From an uncultured cyanobacterium (GTDB lineage: Bacteria; Cyanobacteriota; Cyanobacteriia; PCC-6307; Cyanobiaceae), in the NCBI GenBank assembly GCA_963697335.1, contig CAVONQ010000016.1, positions 65,965 through 129,964 of the forward strand: a DNA stretch of 64,000 nucleotides, in the 5' to 3' direction. A program made the position numbers and the translations under genes. Below, one piece after another: positions 1,845-35,100 of this stretch (within the stretch, counting starts at the first letter, position 1; every line of letters starts with the position of its first letter). The notes under the pieces were generated by a model that was given only the letters and a program-made list of their open reading frames with translations, had not been told where the DNA came from and ran no database searches.

Positions 1845-4462
1845 TGAGGCCCGCGGCCGCTGGTCGGGCCAAGGGTGGCGCCGGCGTGGATGCCCGGGCC
1901 ATCCGCTGGCGGGTCCGGCGCTTCACCCTCGCCTGGTATCTCGTGGTGACGGGCCTTCTGCTCGGGGCGGCGGGCATCACCTTCTGGAGGTTGCAGCTGA
2001 CCATCCAGGAGTTCGCCGGCCAGCGGGTGACCATGGTTCGGGAGAACCTGGGCAAACAGCTCAAGATCACCGACGAGACCTACCGAAAACTCGCCCTTGC
2101 GGCGATGCGGGTGTTGAAGGCTGATTTTCAGGTCCTGGGAGCGGCCCGGTTGGGATCGGGCAGCGTGCGCAGCGGTGACCAAACCGTGCCGGATCTGCGC
2201 TTTGGTGAGTCGCCGGTGGCCGACCAGGCCGCCCTCGTGGAGGAGGTGTCGGCCCAGCTGGGCGCGACCGCCACCGTGTTCGTGGCCCGCGGCGACCGGT
2301 TCATCCGGGTGGCTACCACGGTGAACGATCAGGAGGGCACCGCCGCCATAGGCACCGACCTGGAGCCGGGCGGTGAGGTCATTGAGGCCCTGCGGCAGGG
2401 CGGGGTGTTCATCGGCGTGGTGGACATTCTCGGAGCGCCCTACTTCTCGGCCTATGAACCGATCCGCGACGGCCAGGGTCGGGTGATCGGCGCCTTCTAC
2501 GCGGGCTACCCCATGGCCTCCCTTTCGGAGATCGGCCGCTCGGTGCGCGATGCCAAGATCCTTGAAAATGGCTTCGTGGCCCTCACCGATTCCCAGGGGG
2601 GCCAGCTGTTTCGCTCCTCGGGCGCCACCGCCGACCTTGTTGAGAGGGTGCTGCGCGAGGTTCCGGCCCCGACGGAAGAATCAGCCATCGGCGGGCTCGA
2701 CGGCTACCGGGTGACCCGCACCCGGTTCGCTCCCTGGGGCTTCGACATCGTGATCGCCCGGTTCAATCCGGACATCGATCAGCTGACCTTAAGGCTCACC
2801 GTCGGGGTGCTCTGGCTGATGGCCGTGGTGATCGCCACCGTGCTGGTGCTCTCCTGGTGGTTCAGCCAGCGGCTCTCCCATGCGCTGATTGCCGGGGAAA
2901 TCGCCAGGCGGCGGGCCGATCTGGAGCGCAGGTCGGCCCGGGCCGCCAAGCGGGTGGCTGACCAGGCCAGCCAAGCCAAGAGTGCCTTCCTGGCCAATAT
3001 GAGCCACGAGCTACGTACGCCGATGAACGCGATCATCGGCTACAGCGAGATGTTGATCGAGGAGGCCGAGGAGATCACCTCTGGCCAGATGGTGCTGGAC
3101 CTTCGAAAAATCCAGGCTGCCGGCAAACATCTTCTGGCCTTGATCAATGGTGTGCTCGATCTCTCCAAGATTGAGGCCGGAAAGATGACCCTCTATCTGG
3201 AAGACTTTGATCTGGCTGAGGCAATCCATGAGGCGGCCACCACGGTGACCCCGCTTCTGAGGGAGCATCAGAATCATTTCGTGCTCGACTGCCCAGATGG
3301 GCTGGGCACGCTGCGATCCGATCGCACCAAGTTTCGCCAGTGTCTTCTCAATCTTCTCAGCAATGCCAGCAAGTTCACGGAACGGGGAGAAATCAGCCTG
3401 CGGGTGATCAACGATCTCGCTGATCACCGCATTCGGGTGGTGGTTCAGGACACCGGCATCGGCATGACTGCCGAGCAGATGGAGCACTTGTTCGAGAGTT
3501 TCAACCAGGCCGACAGCAGCACCACCCGCCGCTACGGCGGAACCGGTCTGGGCCTGGCGATCAGTCGTCAATTCAGTCGGATGATGGGTGGCGACATCAC
3601 GGTGGCCAGTTGTCCCGGCCAGGGCAGTTGCTTCACCCTGACCCTCCCCCGGTCGCTGGAACAGCCCGGGCCCGCTTTGGCAGAGCCGGGCCAGCCGGAG
3701 CCTGGTCCCGCTGATCTGCTGGCCCCCAGGGGTCGGGTGCTGGTGGTCGACGATGACCCCGCTGCCCTAGAACTCGTCAGCCGTTTCCTGGCTCGGGACG
3801 GCTACGCCGTCACCACCACGTCCAGCGGGGATGAGGCGATCGCCCTGGCCCGCCAGATCAAGCCCGATGCCATCACCCTGGACGTGATGATGCCGGGACT
3901 GGATGGCTGGAGCGTGCTGGCGGCTCTTAAGGCCGATCCGGAGCTTGCCGCGGTTCCCGTGGTGATGATGAGCATGTTGGACAACCTCGAGCTCGGCTTT
4001 GCGGCGGGCGCGGCGGAATGCCTGACCAAGCCGGTGGACTGGAGCCGCTTCGAGCGGATCCTCGGCCGCCTGACTCCGGTCGATTCCCAGGCGCCAGCGC
4101 GGGCTCTGGTGGTGGAGGCTGACCCCGCCAGCGCCGACTTGCTCCGCCGCATGCTGGAGAAGGGGGGTTGGGCTGTGGATCAGGCCAGAGATGGGCAGGA
4201 GGCACTGAAGGTGCTGGCCCGCTTCCGCCCGACGGTCATCCTGCTCGATCTGATGATGCCCCGCATGGACGGCCTGGACTTCGTCGAGCGGCTGCGGCGC
4301 AACCCCGCCGCAGCGAGCATCCCTGTGATCGTGATCACAGCCCATACCCTGACGCCCGAGGACCAGGCCCGCCTCAATGGCCGGGTCAGCGATGTGATCA
4401 GCAAGGGATCCCTCAGCGCCGCCGCCCTTTCCGAGCAGATCAATGCGATTCTGGCCAGCTGA
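1844..4462 (+). CDS. Membrane hybrid sensor histidine kinase (TM-Cache-TM-HisKA-HATPase-REC-REC)
   Basis: ATG overlaps pds stop (TGATG). Cache-type segment GATATVFV..RVATTV..YFSAYEPIRDGQGRVIG; H-box FLANMSHELRTPMN; N box NLLSNASKFT; DTGIGM and GGTGLGL boxes; two receivers (LDVMMP, LDLMMP). Confidence 0.93.
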
Positions 4463-27775: not shown

Positions 27776-27847
27776 CTCCCCGGGCGGGATTCGAACCTGC
27801 GACCAATCGGTTAACAGCCGACCGCTCTACCACTGAGCTACCGAGGA
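27776..27847 (-). tRNA. trnN: tRNA-Asn(GTT), CCA not encoded
   Basis: TCCTCGGTAGCTCAGTGGTAGAGCGGTCGGCTGTTAACCGATTGGTCGCAGGTTCGAATCCCGCCCGGGGAG; cloverleaf with GTT anticodon. Confidence 0.97.
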
Positions 27848-30157: not shown

Positions 30158-31135
30158 TTACCGGCCAGGATCGGGATTGTCAGCGCGGTTTCCCAGGGAG
30201 CGGCGAAAGCTCCGCTCGGCGGCCTGCTGGTTCTGGTTGGCTTCACGCAGAAACGGGGCCAGGGCAGCCAGGCTCAGCAACCAGTGGTTGAACAGGTTCA
30301 CGGGCCAGCGCAACGGCCGGGCGAAGTCCACGAACAGCACCACCCGGTAGCCCTCGGTGTCATTCCACACCTGGTGGTTGTAGGTGTCGTCAAACACCAG
30401 GCAGCGGCCCTCCTCCCAGACGTGCAGCTGGTCGGCGATGCGGATCCGGCAGTGGTCCCTGGGCTCGGGCACGATCAGGGCCAGATGCAGCCGCAGCACT
30501 CCGGCCCAGGCACCGCGGTGGGGAGGGATGTGTTTGTGGGGCGAGAGGATCGAAAAGAAGGCGGTGCTGCAGTGGGGAATCTGCTCCAGCAGCGCCATGG
30601 TCTGGGGGCAGCGACGGGCGTTGTCGCGGCAATCCATGCCCACGCCCTTGAGAAAGAAGGTCTTCCACTGGTCGTCTTTCTGGATCTTGCCCACCTGGGG
30701 GAGGATCTGCTGGAAGTTGGGCATCGCCGCACGGTGGGGCATCACCTGCTCCAGTTCCTGGCGCACGCCCAGCCACTGCCGCTCCACCGTGTCGATCCAG
30801 GCGAAGCGGCTGGCATCGAACACCGGCACATCGCCGTGGATGGAGGCCCAGCACACCAGGCGTTCGAGGGCGTCGTGCAGGCCGCGCCGCAGCCGCGCTT
30901 TGCGGGAGCGGGCGGGGAACGTCCACTGCCGGCGGCGTCCTGCCTGCGGTGACTGCTGAGGGCTCGTCTGTTGCACCCGATCGTCCTGCTGCCGCTCGTG
31001 CCTGTGCCGGCACCCTATCGGTGGCGGGGCTGAGGCCCCGTCCTCGCTATGGTTTGGCGGTTCTGTCAGCAGTGCCGTGGCCGCCGGTCTTTGGACGGGG
31101 GGCCGAACACGTCGCCGGCTGGCGTCATCCCCCAA
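30158..31135 (-). CDS. Aspartyl/asparaginyl beta-hydroxylase domain protein (start uncertain, likely downstream of 31135)
   Basis: WKTFFL, CPQT..LL, FFSILSP..HIPPHRG, LRLHLAL, WEEG..FDDTYNHQVWN. Confidence 0.85.
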   Translation of the reverse strand: MGDDASRRRVRPPVQRPAATALLTEPPNHSEDGASAPPPIGCRHRHERQQDDRVQQTSPQQSPQAGRRRQWTFPARSRKARLRRGLHDALERLVCWASIHGDVPVFDASRFAWIDTVERQWLGVRQELEQVMPHRAAMPNFQQILPQVGKIQKDDQWKTFFLKGVGMDCRDNARRCPQTMALLEQIPHCSTAFFSILSPHKHIPPHRGAWAGVLRLHLALIVPEPRDHCRIRIADQLHVWEEGRCLVFDDTYNHQVWNDTEGYRVVLFVDFARPLRWPVNLFNHWLLSLAALAPFLREANQNQQAAERSFRRSLGNRADNPDPGR

Positions 31136-31418
31136 AGGAGGAGGTGCCCGTGAGTTCCAGTTGTTACACCAAGGGTCTGCTGATCGCGGAGAACGCCGCC
31201 TGATTACGGCGCCTCAACCCTGATCAAACGGTTCCGCAACCGCGGACCCGGCGAGAGCCCCCACCGTCCAGGTCCGCCTGGGCTGTGGGGGCATCGTTTT
31301 GGCAGCGGTGATCTGGCACCGGTTGGCTGAGGACCGCTTTGATGGCCCCATCCCTGTTGGGGACAGCGTCAGGGAGACCTGTGCCGCCCCGGGACGCAGC
31401 CCTGCATGGTGGGGCCAT

Positions 31419-31434
31419 TGTGACCTCTGGCACA
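31419..31434. promoter_or_regulatory. CRP-like box upstream of porin
   Basis: TGTGA-CCTCTG-GCACA, 9/10 match to TGTGA-N6-TCACA. Confidence 0.4.
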
Positions 31435-31510
31435 GGGGGTGGTGCCAGGAGCCAGAGGAGTGGTCATCATGCTTTTGCGGCGCATTGCGCCCAACTTGTG
31501 TGAGGATCCC

Positions 31511-32957
31511 ATGAAACTTTTCCAGCAACTGCTGGTTGCCCCCGCGGCACTCGGACTGCTGGCCCCTGTGGCCGCCACTGCTTCTGAGCTCAACTTCGAC
31601 GGCGTCGACCAGTACGCCTCCCAGGAGCAAGTCACCAGCATCTCCCAGTTCTCGGACGTGCAACCCACGGATTGGGCCTACCAGGCTCTCTCCAACCTGA
31701 TCGAGCGCTACGGCTGCGTCGCCGGCTACCCCGACGGCACCTACCGCGGCCAGCGGGCCATGACCCGTTTTGAAGCCGCTGCGCTTCTGAACGCCTGCCT
31801 CGACCGCGTCACCGAGGTGACCGACGAGCTCAAGCGCCTGATGGCCGAGTTCGAGAAGGAACTCGCCATCCTCAAGGGCCGCGTTGACGGCCTCGAGGCC
31901 AAGGTCGGTGAGCTGGAGGCCAACCAGTTCTCCACCACCACCAAGCTGAAGGGCATCGCCACGATGACCCTCGGCGGCGCTGGCGAAACCGGCTTCGGCG
32001 ACAACGTCACCGCGAACTACGACGTTCGCCTGATGTTCGACACCAGCTTCACCGGTAAGGACCTGCTGCGCACCACCCTGCGCGCCGGCAACTTCGGCAA
32101 CTCGGTGTTCGGCAACGGCAACACCACCCTGGAAGTGGCTTTCCAGGAAGAGAGCGGTGCTGACTCCGTCGGCATCAACCGCCTCTTCTACCAGTTCCCC
32201 GTCGGCGAGTCCTTCACCGTCACCGCCGGTGCCAAGGTCCGTCAGGACGACATGCTGGCTGTGTGGCCCAGCGCCTACCCCGCTGACACCATCCTCGACC
32301 TGTTCACCTATGCCGGTGCCCGGGCGACCTACAACCTGAACCTCGGCGCCGGTGTCGGTGCCTGGTGGCAGAAGGATGGCTTCAGCATCAGCGCCAACTT
32401 CGTCTCCAACGAGAACGCTGCTGAAAACTCCTTCATCGGCATCGGTGAGGACTACACCATTACCGGCCAGCTTGGCTACACGCGCGAGAACTGGGGCGCA
32501 GCCCTGGCCTACACCTACGCTGACTTCTCCGGCTTCAGCAACAGCAATGTTGGTCTGAGTGCCTACTGGTCCCCCTCCGAATCCGGTTGGGTGCCTTCGA
32601 TCAGCGTCGGTGGCGGTTGGTCTGATTCCCCCAGCACCACTGAAACCTTTGGCAGCGACGGCGACTCCTGGAGCTGGATGGTCGGCCTCCAGTGGACCGA
32701 CATGTTCATCAAGGGCAACGCCCTCGGCATGGCCATGGGTAGTGCTGGCCAGATCGGCGATGGCAAGTGCGGCACCACCGCAGCTCTGCACCGGCGGCAT
32801 CTGGGCCGACGGTGGACAAGAGACCCTGGCCTACGAGCTGTGGTACAAGTTCCAGGTCACCGACAACATCAGCGTGACCCCCGCCTTCTTCTGGATCGAG
32901 AACGACGGCGCCAGCGACACCTACGGCGGTCTGGTCAAGACCACCTTCAAGTTCTGA
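31511..32957 (+). pseudogene. som: Som-type (SLH + OprB-like) major porin with frameshift near 32780
   Basis: MKLFQQLLVAPAALG, SLH segment FSDVQPTDWAYQAL; the family C-terminus YELWYKFQVTDNISVTP..KTTFKF lies in a different frame. Confidence 0.88.
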
Positions 32958-32973
32958 TCGTCTGATCGGAACC

Positions 32974-33084
32974 GGGCCTGGCTCCTCACACTCTTCCCAG
33001 GCCCTTCGTCCTCTTTAACCGTCAGGAACCACTCTTCACACCGTTGTTCCTCTTCCCTCCCCGGCCTTTGGCCGGGTTTTTTTT
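32974..33084 (+). ncRNA. Candidate 3'-UTR sRNA with two Yfr1-type loop motifs
   Basis: Stem GGGCCTGG/CCAGGCCC with CTCCTCACAC in the loop; stem AGGAAC/GTTCCT with ACTCTTCACAC in the loop; then terminator. Confidence 0.65.
33060..33084 (+). terminator. Intrinsic terminator after porin
   Basis: CCCGGCC-TTT-GGCCGGG followed by T8. Confidence 0.9.
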
Positions 33085-33125
33085 GGCCCGATCTCCGCAG
33101 CCTGGCCGCTTAGGTTGCCCTGGAC

Positions 33126-33830
33126 GTGAGCTGGTGCGGAAGGAGGTGTCTCCTGCCTCAGGCTGATCCCTATGCGGTGCTGGGTGTGTCCCCCCAGGCC
33201 AGTGGCGCCGAGATCAAGGCCGCCTACCGCGCCCTGGTCAAGCGGCATCACCCCGATGCCGGCGGGGACGACACCACGATCCTGGCCCTCAACGCCGCCT
33301 GGGAGGTGCTGGGTGATCGCGAGCGCCGCCGCCGCCATGACCGCCGCCATCCCAGCCCTGGCAGGAGCGGGGGCGCGTCACCCCCTGCAGACACCCCGAG
33401 GGCAGGGGCCACCCCAAGGGCAGCAGCCCACGAGGCCGCCCTGCGCCTCTGGTTGCAGCAGGTGTACGTGCCGATCGACCGCCTGCTGGGCCAGGTGATC
33501 AACCCCTTCCCAGCCCAGCTGCGGGCCCTCGCCGCCGATCCCTACGACGACCGTCTGATGGAGGCCTTCTGCGCCTTCCTGGAGCTGAGCCAGACCCGCC
33601 TGGCCAGGGTGGAAACCCTCTACCGCTCCCATGCCTGCCCCCAGGCCCTGGAGAGCTTCTGCCTGGACCTTTACCACTGCCTCAGCCTGGTCAAGGACGC
33701 CCTGGTGGACCTGGAGCGTTACACCATGGGCTACGTGGACTCCTACCTGCGCGATGGCCGCGAACTGCTGCGCAAGGCCGGGGCACGGCGGCGCCAGCTG
33801 AAGCAGGACCGGCGCCAGGTGATGGCCTGA
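33126..33830 (+). CDS. DnaJ-domain protein
   Basis: DPYAVLGV..IKAAYR..HHPD J-domain; cyanobacterial-type helical C-terminus (LAADPYDD). Confidence 0.88.
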   Translation: MSWCGRRCLLPQADPYAVLGVSPQASGAEIKAAYRALVKRHHPDAGGDDTTILALNAAWEVLGDRERRRRHDRRHPSPGRSGGASPPADTPRAGATPRAAAHEAALRLWLQQVYVPIDRLLGQVINPFPAQLRALAADPYDDRLMEAFCAFLELSQTRLARVETLYRSHACPQALESFCLDLYHCLSLVKDALVDLERYTMGYVDSYLRDGRELLRKAGARRRQLKQDRRQVMA

Positions 33831-33831
33831 G

Positions 33832-34074
33832 TCAGCCCGGGAAGGCTTCCAGGACAGCGAGGGGCAGCCATACATCCGGAACAGGCCGCTGCCAGCGCAG
33901 CTGGGCATAGGCCCCCTTCACGGCCAGCACTTCGCCGGGGCCCTTGAGGATGTAGCCGGGGGGCTGGGGGGCACTGGCGGCCGCTTCGGCACTGCGGCCA
34001 TAGGCGTCGCTGTTCACCCGCACCAGGCTGCCCTTCTTCAGGGGGGGCTGGGCGGTGGAGGGCGTGTCGGCCAT
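33832..34074 (-). CDS. ndhO: NAD(P)H-quinone oxidoreductase subunit O
   Basis: LKKGSLVRV..SAEAAAS..PGYIL.GPGE..PVPDVWL. Confidence 0.9.
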   Translation of the reverse strand: MADTPSTAQPPLKKGSLVRVNSDAYGRSAEAAASAPQPPGYILKGPGEVLAVKGAYAQLRWQRPVPDVWLPLAVLEAFPG

Positions 34075-34155
34075 GACGAGCCTTGGGAGATGGCTGCCAG
34101 GTTAGGTCCCCCCCTGGCGTTGAGCTTGGCCCTAGCCTCCAGACGCGCTGAGGGA

Positions 34156-35100
34156 ATGGAGCGGGTGCGTCTCTTGTTGCTGGGTTGCTCCGGGTTCGTG
34201 GGGCTCGAGTTGGTGCCCTACCTGCTGGAACTGGGTCACACACTCACCGTGGTGAGTCGCCGCAGCGACCCCTTCCATACCCTGACCAGTGATCGGCTGG
34301 GCAGCCTGCAGCTCGATCCAGCCGACCCTGCCAGCTGGCAGAGCCCGGACTTGCTTGAGGCCCTGGCCGGCGCCGAGGGTGTGGTGAATCTCGCCGGTGA
34401 GCCCATCGCCGAGAAACGCTGGACTCCGGCCCATCGCAGCCTGCTGATGCGCAGCCGCAGCCGCACCACCGAGCTGCTGGTGCAGGCGATGGCAGCGCTG
34501 CAGACGCCGCCGCGGGTTCTGGTGAATGCCTCGGCGGTGGGGTACTACGGCACCAGCCTCGAGCAGCGGTTCACGGAGCAGAGCCCTGCCGGCAGTGATT
34601 ACCTGGCCGAGATCTGCAGCAACTGGGAGGCGGCGGCGGCCCGCTGCCCCGAGGCCTGTCGCCTGGTGATTGTGCGGATCGGCATCGTGCTGGGCGGCGA
34701 TGGTGGTGCCCTCGCCAAGATGCTGCCCGTGTTTCGGATGGGCTTCGGCGGGCCGGTGGGCTCCGGCCGCCAGTGGATGAGCTGGATCCATCGCCACGAC
34801 CTCTGCCGTCTTGTGGCCACCGCCCTGGAGGACGGGCGCTGGAGGGGCACGTACAACGCCGTGGCACCCCAGCCGGTGCGCATGGCGGCGTTCGCCTCGG
34901 CCCTGGGTCGGGTGCTGGGGCGGCCCAGCCTGCTGCCGGTGCCGGGGCCGATCCTGCAGCTGTTGCTGGGGGATGGGGCCCAGGTGGTGCTGGAGGGTCA
35001 GCAGGTGGTGTCCGAGCGGCTCCAGGCCGAGGGCTTCACCTTCCAGTACCCCGAGCTCGGCGCTGCCCTTGCTGCTGCCACCAGCTCAGCACCCCGCTGA
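34156..35100 (+). CDS. TIGR01777 family NAD-dependent epimerase/oxidoreductase
   Basis: GCSGFVG, VNLAGEPI, ASAVGYYG, GSGRQWMSWIH. Confidence 0.9.
   Translation: MERVRLLLLGCSGFVGLELVPYLLELGHTLTVVSRRSDPFHTLTSDRLGSLQLDPADPASWQSPDLLEALAGAEGVVNLAGEPIAEKRWTPAHRSLLMRSRSRTTELLVQAMAALQTPPRVLVNASAVGYYGTSLEQRFTEQSPAGSDYLAEICSNWEAAAARCPEACRLVIVRIGIVLGGDGGALAKMLPVFRMGFGGPVGSGRQWMSWIHRHDLCRLVATALEDGRWRGTYNAVAPQPVRMAAFASALGRVLGRPSLLPVPGPILQLLLGDGAQVVLEGQQVVSERLQAEGFTFQYPELGAALAAATSSAPR

Follow-up and report, generated by a model that had tools for sequence, protein, structure and literature searches.

The locus described here raises the question of why a porin messenger RNA (mRNA) should carry, downstream of its stop codon, hairpin loops that are complementary to its own ribosome-binding site (RBS). 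It lies within a 64,000-nucleotide stretch of DNA (the window; positions 65,965 to 129,964 of contig CAVONQ010000016.1, assembly GCA_963697335.1) from an uncultured cyanobacterium of the family Cyanobiaceae. The gene encodes a Som-type porin, and the element in its 3' untranslated region (UTR) is composed of a hairpin with the seed of the small RNA (sRNA) Yfr1 in its loop, a second Yfr1-like seed, and an intrinsic terminator. Few cyanobacterial sRNAs are as conserved as Yfr1 and Yfr2, and the som porins are the best-verified targets of Yfr1. The element occurs in many genera of the Synechococcus/Cyanobium type and is restricted to this lineage. The reading ranked first, which we judge about as probable as its negation, is that the 3' UTR gives rise to an sRNA of about 110 nucleotides that mimics Yfr1 and represses som leaders.

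The porin gene, its leader site, and its 3' UTR

All features of the porin locus are on the forward strand of the window. The leader contains GUGUGAGGA (GTGTGAGGA in DNA form) at 31498-31506, over the Shine-Dalgarno sequence and 4 nucleotides before the AUG at 31511. The original prediction had placed a target site just before this start codon, and it is found there. It is a docking site of the type that Yfr1 uses on som mRNAs (PMC2796815), and the loops downstream do carry the Yfr1 seed.

The element lies 17 nucleotides past the porin stop codon (32955-32957), which is followed by two GAUC repeats (UGAUCGUCUGAUCGG, 32955-32969). Hairpin 1 (32974-33004) is composed of an 8-base-pair stem (GGGCCTGG/CCAGGCCC) and a 15-nucleotide loop (CTCCTCACACTCTTC) that includes CUCCUCACAC at 32982-32991. 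Within this loop, TCCTCACAC (32983-32991) is the perfect 9-nucleotide complement of the leader site that had been claimed for it. Hairpin 2 (33024-33051) has a 6-base-pair stem (AGGAAC/GTTCCT) and a loop with ACUCUUCACAC (ACTCTTCACAC at 33031-33041). Its C-to-U change was said to pair still as G-U, and the calculation bears this out: the core duplex with the leader site has all 9 base pairs and an energy of -11.5 kcal/mol, versus -14.2 kcal/mol for hairpin 1, the latter value being the same as that of Yfr1. The intrinsic terminator, also noted earlier, is located at 33060-33084 and is composed of seven G-C pairs (33060-33076) and a run of eight T, a U-run in the RNA, that extends to 33084. It is the one terminator after the stop codon and is common to the porin mRNA and the putative 3' fragment.

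RNAfold of 32955-33090 predicts exactly these three structures, hairpin 1, hairpin 2, and the terminator, at -43.9 kcal/mol (z = -3.25; 1 of 200 shuffles as good). Both loop seeds are unpaired in the ensemble, with an opening energy of about 0 kcal/mol.

The porin gene (31511-32957) encodes a product with an N-terminal SLH domain (Pfam PF00395, 40.9 bits), an OprB-family barrel (PF04966, 39.4 bits), and, at the end of the intact frame (...TTFKF), a C-terminal aromatic residue, as in Som-type porins. The intact orthologue in the nearest relative (G012) covers the full OprB profile with 66.2 bits. The original prediction of a porin gene stands as to the family of the protein, while the frame is not intact. 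An extra C at 32786 disrupts it; this base is a 1-nucleotide insertion relative to G012 and is absent also from two environmental RNA-library contigs. The frame opened at 31511 continues into a nonsense tail and ends at a stop at 32963-32965, 8 nucleotides past the normal one. The true C-terminus (...TTFKF and stop) is in another frame, ending at 32957, so that two frames are needed for the whole protein and the stop codon at 32955-32957 is that of the intact frame. The extra C is either an assembly error or the sign of a young pseudogene.

The genome (2.58 Mb, both strands) contains eight copies of the 9-mer GTGTGAGGA or its complement. These are the porin RBS at 31498-31506, the RBS of a second porin paralogue on contig 9, Yfr1, hairpin 1, and four other places, none of which has a hairpin-and-terminator context. 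Only two start sites in this genome have a perfect 9-mer target followed by a plausible gene, and both belong to porins. The full motif ACTCYTCACAC occurs twice, once in Yfr1 and once in hairpin 2. Within the window, the 10-mer with at most one mismatch is not enriched (4 found, 5.6 expected), and three of these four are on the porin gene. Because the contig 9 paralogue has an identical, perfect leader site, cross-regulation between the two porins is possible. Among porin leaders located by script in other loci, GUGUGAGG is found 2 to 6 nucleotides before the AUG in 9 of 11; one of the two misses results from a mis-called start codon, G012 having the site after all.

A small hairpin, GCGGCGCAUUGCGCCC, can be read from the sequence at 31477-31492, just upstream of the docking site, and a GGCGCAUYGCGCC hairpin is often located upstream of the docking site in the porin leaders of other genomes and genera. 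The GC hairpin at 31477-31492 (GGCGCAUUGCGCC) may form the 5'-terminal stem of the mRNA, and a -10-like hexamer, CAYCAT, is present about 7 nucleotides upstream of it.

The contig 9 paralogue (L005) has, in addition to GUGUGAGGA in its leader, a 3' UTR made up of a hairpin, then CCCACACCUCACG, then a terminator, which may be a decayed version of the element. A third porin paralogue (L004:1381-1440, contig 5 of this genome) lacks both the Yfr1 site and the 3' motif. Upstream of it are GATAATGATTCCCATTC, which resembles a Fur box, and a gene for a CobW/G3E-like GTPase, and this porin may be iron- or metal-regulated. Contigs 4 (about position 3800) and 17 (about position 2180) of the same genome share an identical stretch of at least 120 bases, either a repeat or a duplicated contig end, in which GTGTGAGGA is located before a GTG-started open frame.

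Conservation of the element behind porin genes

A BLAST search with the 126-nucleotide UTR gives matches in 5 of the 31 other genomes of the same genus, each directly after the orthologous porin gene (...TTFKF and stop). A covariance model (R1) was built from these five relatives and the UTR itself, six sequences in all, and matched 46 of 151 genomes of the family at E<=0.01. The best 30 R1 loci can be sorted into three groups. In 18 of them, the locus described here included, a hairpin with a YUCCUCACAC-type loop directly follows a porin gene; two, both in genus g70, show ACUCCUUCACAC or ACUCUUCACAC in unpaired form behind a porin-like gene; and 10 are plain terminators after unrelated genes. 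Several of the best 30 loci are tandem som pairs with the element in between. Location in a 3' UTR together with a shared intrinsic terminator, the arrangement that characterizes 3'-UTR-derived sRNAs, is found here and in the same 18 loci.

The stem of hairpin 1 covaries. Seven of its eight pairs change on both sides among 22 aligned sequences, 97.6% of the cells are paired, and none of 500 shuffles reaches the observed covariation. Because the alignment was fitted to the model, with a bias in favour of the structure, and because the genomes are related, the result is supportive and not a formal test. The loop motif is fixed while the stem varies, being conserved in 20 of the 22 sequences. Most loop variants (UUCUCACAC, UCCUCGCAC) are C-to-U or A-to-G transitions that keep the pairing with GUGUGAGGA by way of G-U pairs, and in a third, CCCUCACAC, only the end pair is lost. 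The terminator is kept in all 22.

The original prediction described two tandem loops. They are present in this genome and in its closest relative, G012, the only two with the hairpin 2 stem. A second Yfr1-like motif (consensus about CACUUCUCACAC) exists at the place of hairpin 2 in 17 of the 22 sequences (shuffles: mean 1.5, maximum 5), but outside these two genomes it is degenerate and predicted to be unpaired, and the tandem-loop description does not extend to them.

A scan of other som 3' UTRs had been proposed, and the motif proves to be kept after orthologous porins in many genera. A matched count was made by regular expression on 250-nucleotide 3' UTRs, with the best C-terminal porin match taken from each of 30 family genomes that are at least 95% complete. 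The motif is present in 23 of 31 3' UTRs, which come from 23 of the 30 genomes and from 8 of the 13 genera. On the reverse strand, used as a control, it is present in 2 of 31, both of them the leader site of the next som gene. Some of the misses (genera g77, g63, and g88) carry CCCUCACAC-type variants, and the loop in genus g81 contains the full ACUCCUCACAC. In other cyanobacterial families the motif occurs in none of 35 porin 3' UTRs (28 genomes), and in two small, AT-rich, Prochlorococcus-like genomes in none of four. When five genomes of genus g5 were searched with R1, the matches were confined to unrelated terminators and a Yfr2-like RNA; direct inspection of one som paralogue of this genus revealed a variant arrangement, composed of a hairpin, a single-stranded UUCCUCACAC, and a terminator, followed by another som gene. 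Since the element is conserved across genera, chance can be ruled out as the source of the complementarity.

The segment between stop codon and motif is also distinctive. In the orthologous 3' UTRs (L111-L140), 26 of 31 begin with TGATC, and GATC occurs 58 times in the 1052 nucleotides between stop and motif, compared with 3.8 in shuffles (maximum 12) and a genome-wide 8.5 per kb. The repeats might serve for processing or methylation, or they might form mini-hairpins.

Since mRNAs are generally protected by stable hairpins at their 3' ends, the element could be a structural stabiliser of the mRNA end whose likeness to the Yfr1 seed is without regulatory meaning. It could also be an independent Yfr10-like sRNA gene that stands behind som; Yfr10-type genes are free-standing and poorly syntenic according to PMC6778093, and the locus matched by a published Synechococcus WH8102 probe (see below) is likewise free-standing, with no porin nearby. 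Both explanations are very unlikely. A pure stabiliser would not require its loop to stay invariant while the stem covaries. An independent gene would not be expected to remain linked to the porin stop across at least eight genera while the flanking genes differ (a DnaJ-domain protein here, a second som elsewhere), nor to begin as little as 17 nucleotides from that stop. In several genera the hairpin begins 17 to 25 nucleotides past the stop codon, a gap that leaves no room for an intergenic promoter.

The gene that follows the terminator (33126-33830, forward strand) encodes the DnaJ-domain protein (PF00226, 55.9 bits); in other genera the second som occupies this place. Elsewhere in the window, a transfer RNA gene at 27776-27847 (reverse strand) is the sole Rfam match above the gathering score.

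Production and action of the putative sRNA

In the proposed mechanism, the porin 3' UTR would serve as a conserved regulatory module made up of the hairpin 1 seed, the second, degenerate seed, and the terminator. Its last 110 or so nucleotides (32974-33084) would accumulate as a small RNA, which would either be cut free within the single-stranded, GAUC-rich segment past the stop codon or be transcribed from a promoter inside the coding end. The YUCCUCACAC seed would then pair with GUGUGAGGA at the RBS of its own leader and of the contig 9 paralogue and block translation as Yfr1 does, and porin transcription would thereby limit porin synthesis. Yfr2 could bind the same seed, because it begins with UUGUGAGGAGUG, and this would tie the module to the published Yfr1/Yfr10-Yfr2 network.

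We infer that a discrete small RNA is produced and represses som on four grounds. The element has the build of an sRNA, with a 5' hairpin, exposed seeds, and a terminator; in several genera the short gap after the stop codon is too small to hold an intergenic promoter; trans action of Yfr10-type loops is established; and OppZ and CarZ show autoregulation of this kind (PMC7398697). The interpretation offered in the original prediction, an sRNA from tandem 3' UTR loops or pairing between the two ends of the mRNA, is in this sense partly supported.

The second half of that interpretation is a rival to the first. The 3' UTR loops may pair in cis with GUGUGAGGA of their own mRNA and lower translation or trigger decay without any sRNA. 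The complementarity, accessibility, and conservation described above apply to this explanation equally, and every mRNA on which the element is located has the site as well. The gene and its UTR, to about 33046 and not beyond, are covered by contigs of two metatranscriptome runs. One of these contigs, which spans 32840-33039 with one difference, links the coding end to hairpin 1, a link that speaks for the 3'-UTR-derived sRNA and for cis action alike. A precedent exists in the icaR mRNA of Staphylococcus aureus, in which a 3' UTR motif pairs with its own Shine-Dalgarno sequence (PMC3868564). The shared feature is this complementarity between 3' UTR motif and own Shine-Dalgarno; icaR differs in that it is from another organism, has a single motif, and acts demonstrably in cis, which for the porin is only conceivable. 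Two seeds with a 5' hairpin and a terminator resemble a stable sRNA, not a single patch complementary to a Shine-Dalgarno sequence. In tandem loci the next som has the same site, which fits trans action as well, and ribosomes in the act of translation would keep the two ends of a 1.5-kb mRNA apart. On balance, cis pairing as the explanation is unlikely. The computations used here do not discriminate between cis and trans, and a fold of the full-length mRNA would be unreliable.

Several points weigh against the 3'-UTR-derived sRNA. No discrete small RNA is seen in the RNA-library contigs, which show neither RNA ends nor levels and may derive from DNA, since DNA may occur in RNA libraries. Two raw-read runs (X23 and X24) gave 0 reads and are no test of the element. 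Sequence analysis pins down neither a processing site nor a promoter for the putative sRNA; a scan of 31200-33300 for sigma-70-type promoters found none, although the scan is insensitive and misses the porin's own promoter also. Opening the predicted leader site costs about 6.6 kcal/mol, a value that holds for an arbitrary window used in place of a mapped transcription start. RNAcofold does not separate the real site from shuffled ones, with free-energy differences (ddG) of -7.1 for the UTR and -9.5 for Yfr1 compared with shuffled means of -5.8 and -8.7; since this program cannot model kissing between loop and target, the opening and duplex energies given above were used instead. The structure of hairpin 2 is not conserved. 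The regular expressions for the motif counts, that for the second motif included, were written after the sequences had been seen, and related genomes are not independent. Canonical Yfr1 is abundant and already presents this seed, which may make a further repressor superfluous. Finally, the porin is frameshifted in this assembly, and the Yfr1-seed circuit may be decaying in this strain if the extra base is not due to faulty assembly.

A wider role can be suggested tentatively. In Synechococcus/Cyanobium-type picocyanobacteria, the most abundant porin mRNA might not only be targeted by the Yfr1 seed but also provide it from a second source. A mimic released in proportion to porin transcription would repress som, with self-limitation and cross-talk between tandem som genes, and would compete with Yfr1 for the Yfr2 sponge. 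Porin output would thereby feed directly into the global Yfr1/Yfr2 network, which controls carbon and nitrogen metabolism; we hold this broader proposal to be possible but doubtful. If the target mRNA does release the seed, porin synthesis would have a built-in feedback, and the pool of Yfr1-type seed would depend on porin transcription. This would be a first cyanobacterial case of 3' UTR autoregulation, and an unusual one in that the mRNA embeds a copy of the seed of a global sRNA. The lineage-restricted distribution of the element provides a clean comparative handle.

Relation to Yfr1, Yfr10-type RNAs, Yfr2, and other systems

The canonical Yfr1 of this genome is on contig 2 (RF01116, 60.4 bits against a gathering score of 38), flanked, as judged by eye, by a guaB-like gene that ends on one side of it and a trxA-like gene that starts on the other. 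The position between guaB and trxA is conserved in picocyanobacteria. The element itself is not Yfr1. The original prediction had suggested an Rfam search for this family, and RF01116 gives no match at E<=10 in 30500-34500 and none at E<=1 in 12 related loci; nor did Rfam place any other relevant family on the UTR. The two RNAs share the seed and the predicted target in som leaders. In Yfr1, ACUCCUCACAC is single-stranded between a 5' stem-loop and the terminator, whereas in the element the motif is inside hairpin loops. Hairpin 1 has GCUCCUCACAC, in which the first base is G instead of the A of Yfr1, and hairpin 2 has ACUCUUCACAC. The som 3' UTR of genus g5 follows the Yfr1-like order of hairpin, single-stranded motif, and terminator. 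Yfr1 also lies elsewhere in the genome, while the element follows a porin gene, and the som mRNA that bears it belongs itself to a verified class of Yfr1 targets. Yfr1 of Prochlorococcus MED4 represses the som mRNAs PMM1119 and PMM1121 by pairing with the RBS (PMC2796815), and the targets of Nostoc Yfr1 include porins (PMC6974561).

Other sRNAs with the Yfr1 motif are known, namely Yfr10, Yfr12, and Yfr18 of Prochlorococcus MED4 and "Yfr10-like" RNAs elsewhere (Steglich et al. 2008, Lambrecht et al. 2019; PMC2518516, PMC6778093). According to PMC6778093, Yfr10 presents the motif in a loop atop a stem, and RNAs of this type act on targets and bind Yfr2; their genes, free-standing and poorly syntenic as stated above, are upstream of Yfr2 homologues in high-light Prochlorococcus. 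Hairpin 1 matches this architecture, with the motif in a loop on a stem and an opening energy of about 0 kcal/mol. The complementarity of Yfr10-type RNAs to the 5' end of Yfr2 is shared as well, as read from the sequences (GUGAGGAG in Yfr2 and CUCCUCAC in the loop). The published members differ in being free-standing, whereas the putative sRNA of the porin locus forms the 3' end of a som mRNA, and its linkage to som is conserved.

The "Yfr10-like" RNA of Synechococcus WH8102 (probe in Table S4 of PMC6778093) was considered as an identity for the element and rejected. A scan of the family gave one exact match to the probe, in genome G358 (L050), with no porin within 1.5 kb; a first scan of contigs had matched only three unrelated bacteria. 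The locus (L050:1380-1560) is free-standing, with CCUCCUCACAC in single-stranded form ahead of a terminator hairpin, and two genus g5 genomes share it (G358 L050 and G174 L052).

A single Yfr2/Cyano-1 RNA (RF01701, 56.1 bits) exists in the genome, on another contig; it was found by the Rfam family search, an earlier regular expression having matched nothing. The sequence UUGUGAGGAGUG in its 5' part can base-pair with CUCCUCAC of the loop. Yfr2 is described in PMC6778093 as binding Yfr1 and Yfr10 through the motif and cancelling the repression of a som leader by Yfr1. The loops may thus be a docking place on the mRNA for Yfr2 or another partner, by which som would titrate Yfr2 and free Yfr1, or Yfr2 would control the stability of som. 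Nothing separates Yfr2 from the som leaders as the partner of the loops, and the C-to-U variants fit both; as the explanation of the element, docking is quite unlikely. Neither docking nor cis pairing is exclusive of the sRNA model.

The searchable literature yielded no description of a Yfr1 motif in som 3' UTRs; this scope leaves out supplements and a microarray survey of noncoding RNAs in marine Synechococcus (Gierga et al. 2012, ISME J), which might already list an RNA at this place. For the 3'-UTR-derived sRNA reading, the nearest systems are found in Vibrio cholerae, where the sRNAs OppZ and CarZ arise from 3' UTRs and each repress the operon of their origin (PMC7398697), and a 3'-end-derived sRNA is known in cyanobacteria also (PMC8136909). 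The proposed logic is the same as in OppZ and CarZ, in that a fragment of the mRNA 3' end pairs with the RBS region of its own transcript and provides negative feedback. Those sRNAs depend on Hfq and RNase E, are from a proteobacterium, and have private seeds, whereas the porin element, described here from sequence, has the same seed as a global sRNA that is encoded elsewhere in the genome. We class the element as an RNA with a Yfr1/Yfr10 seed that is joined to the very mRNA it would target.

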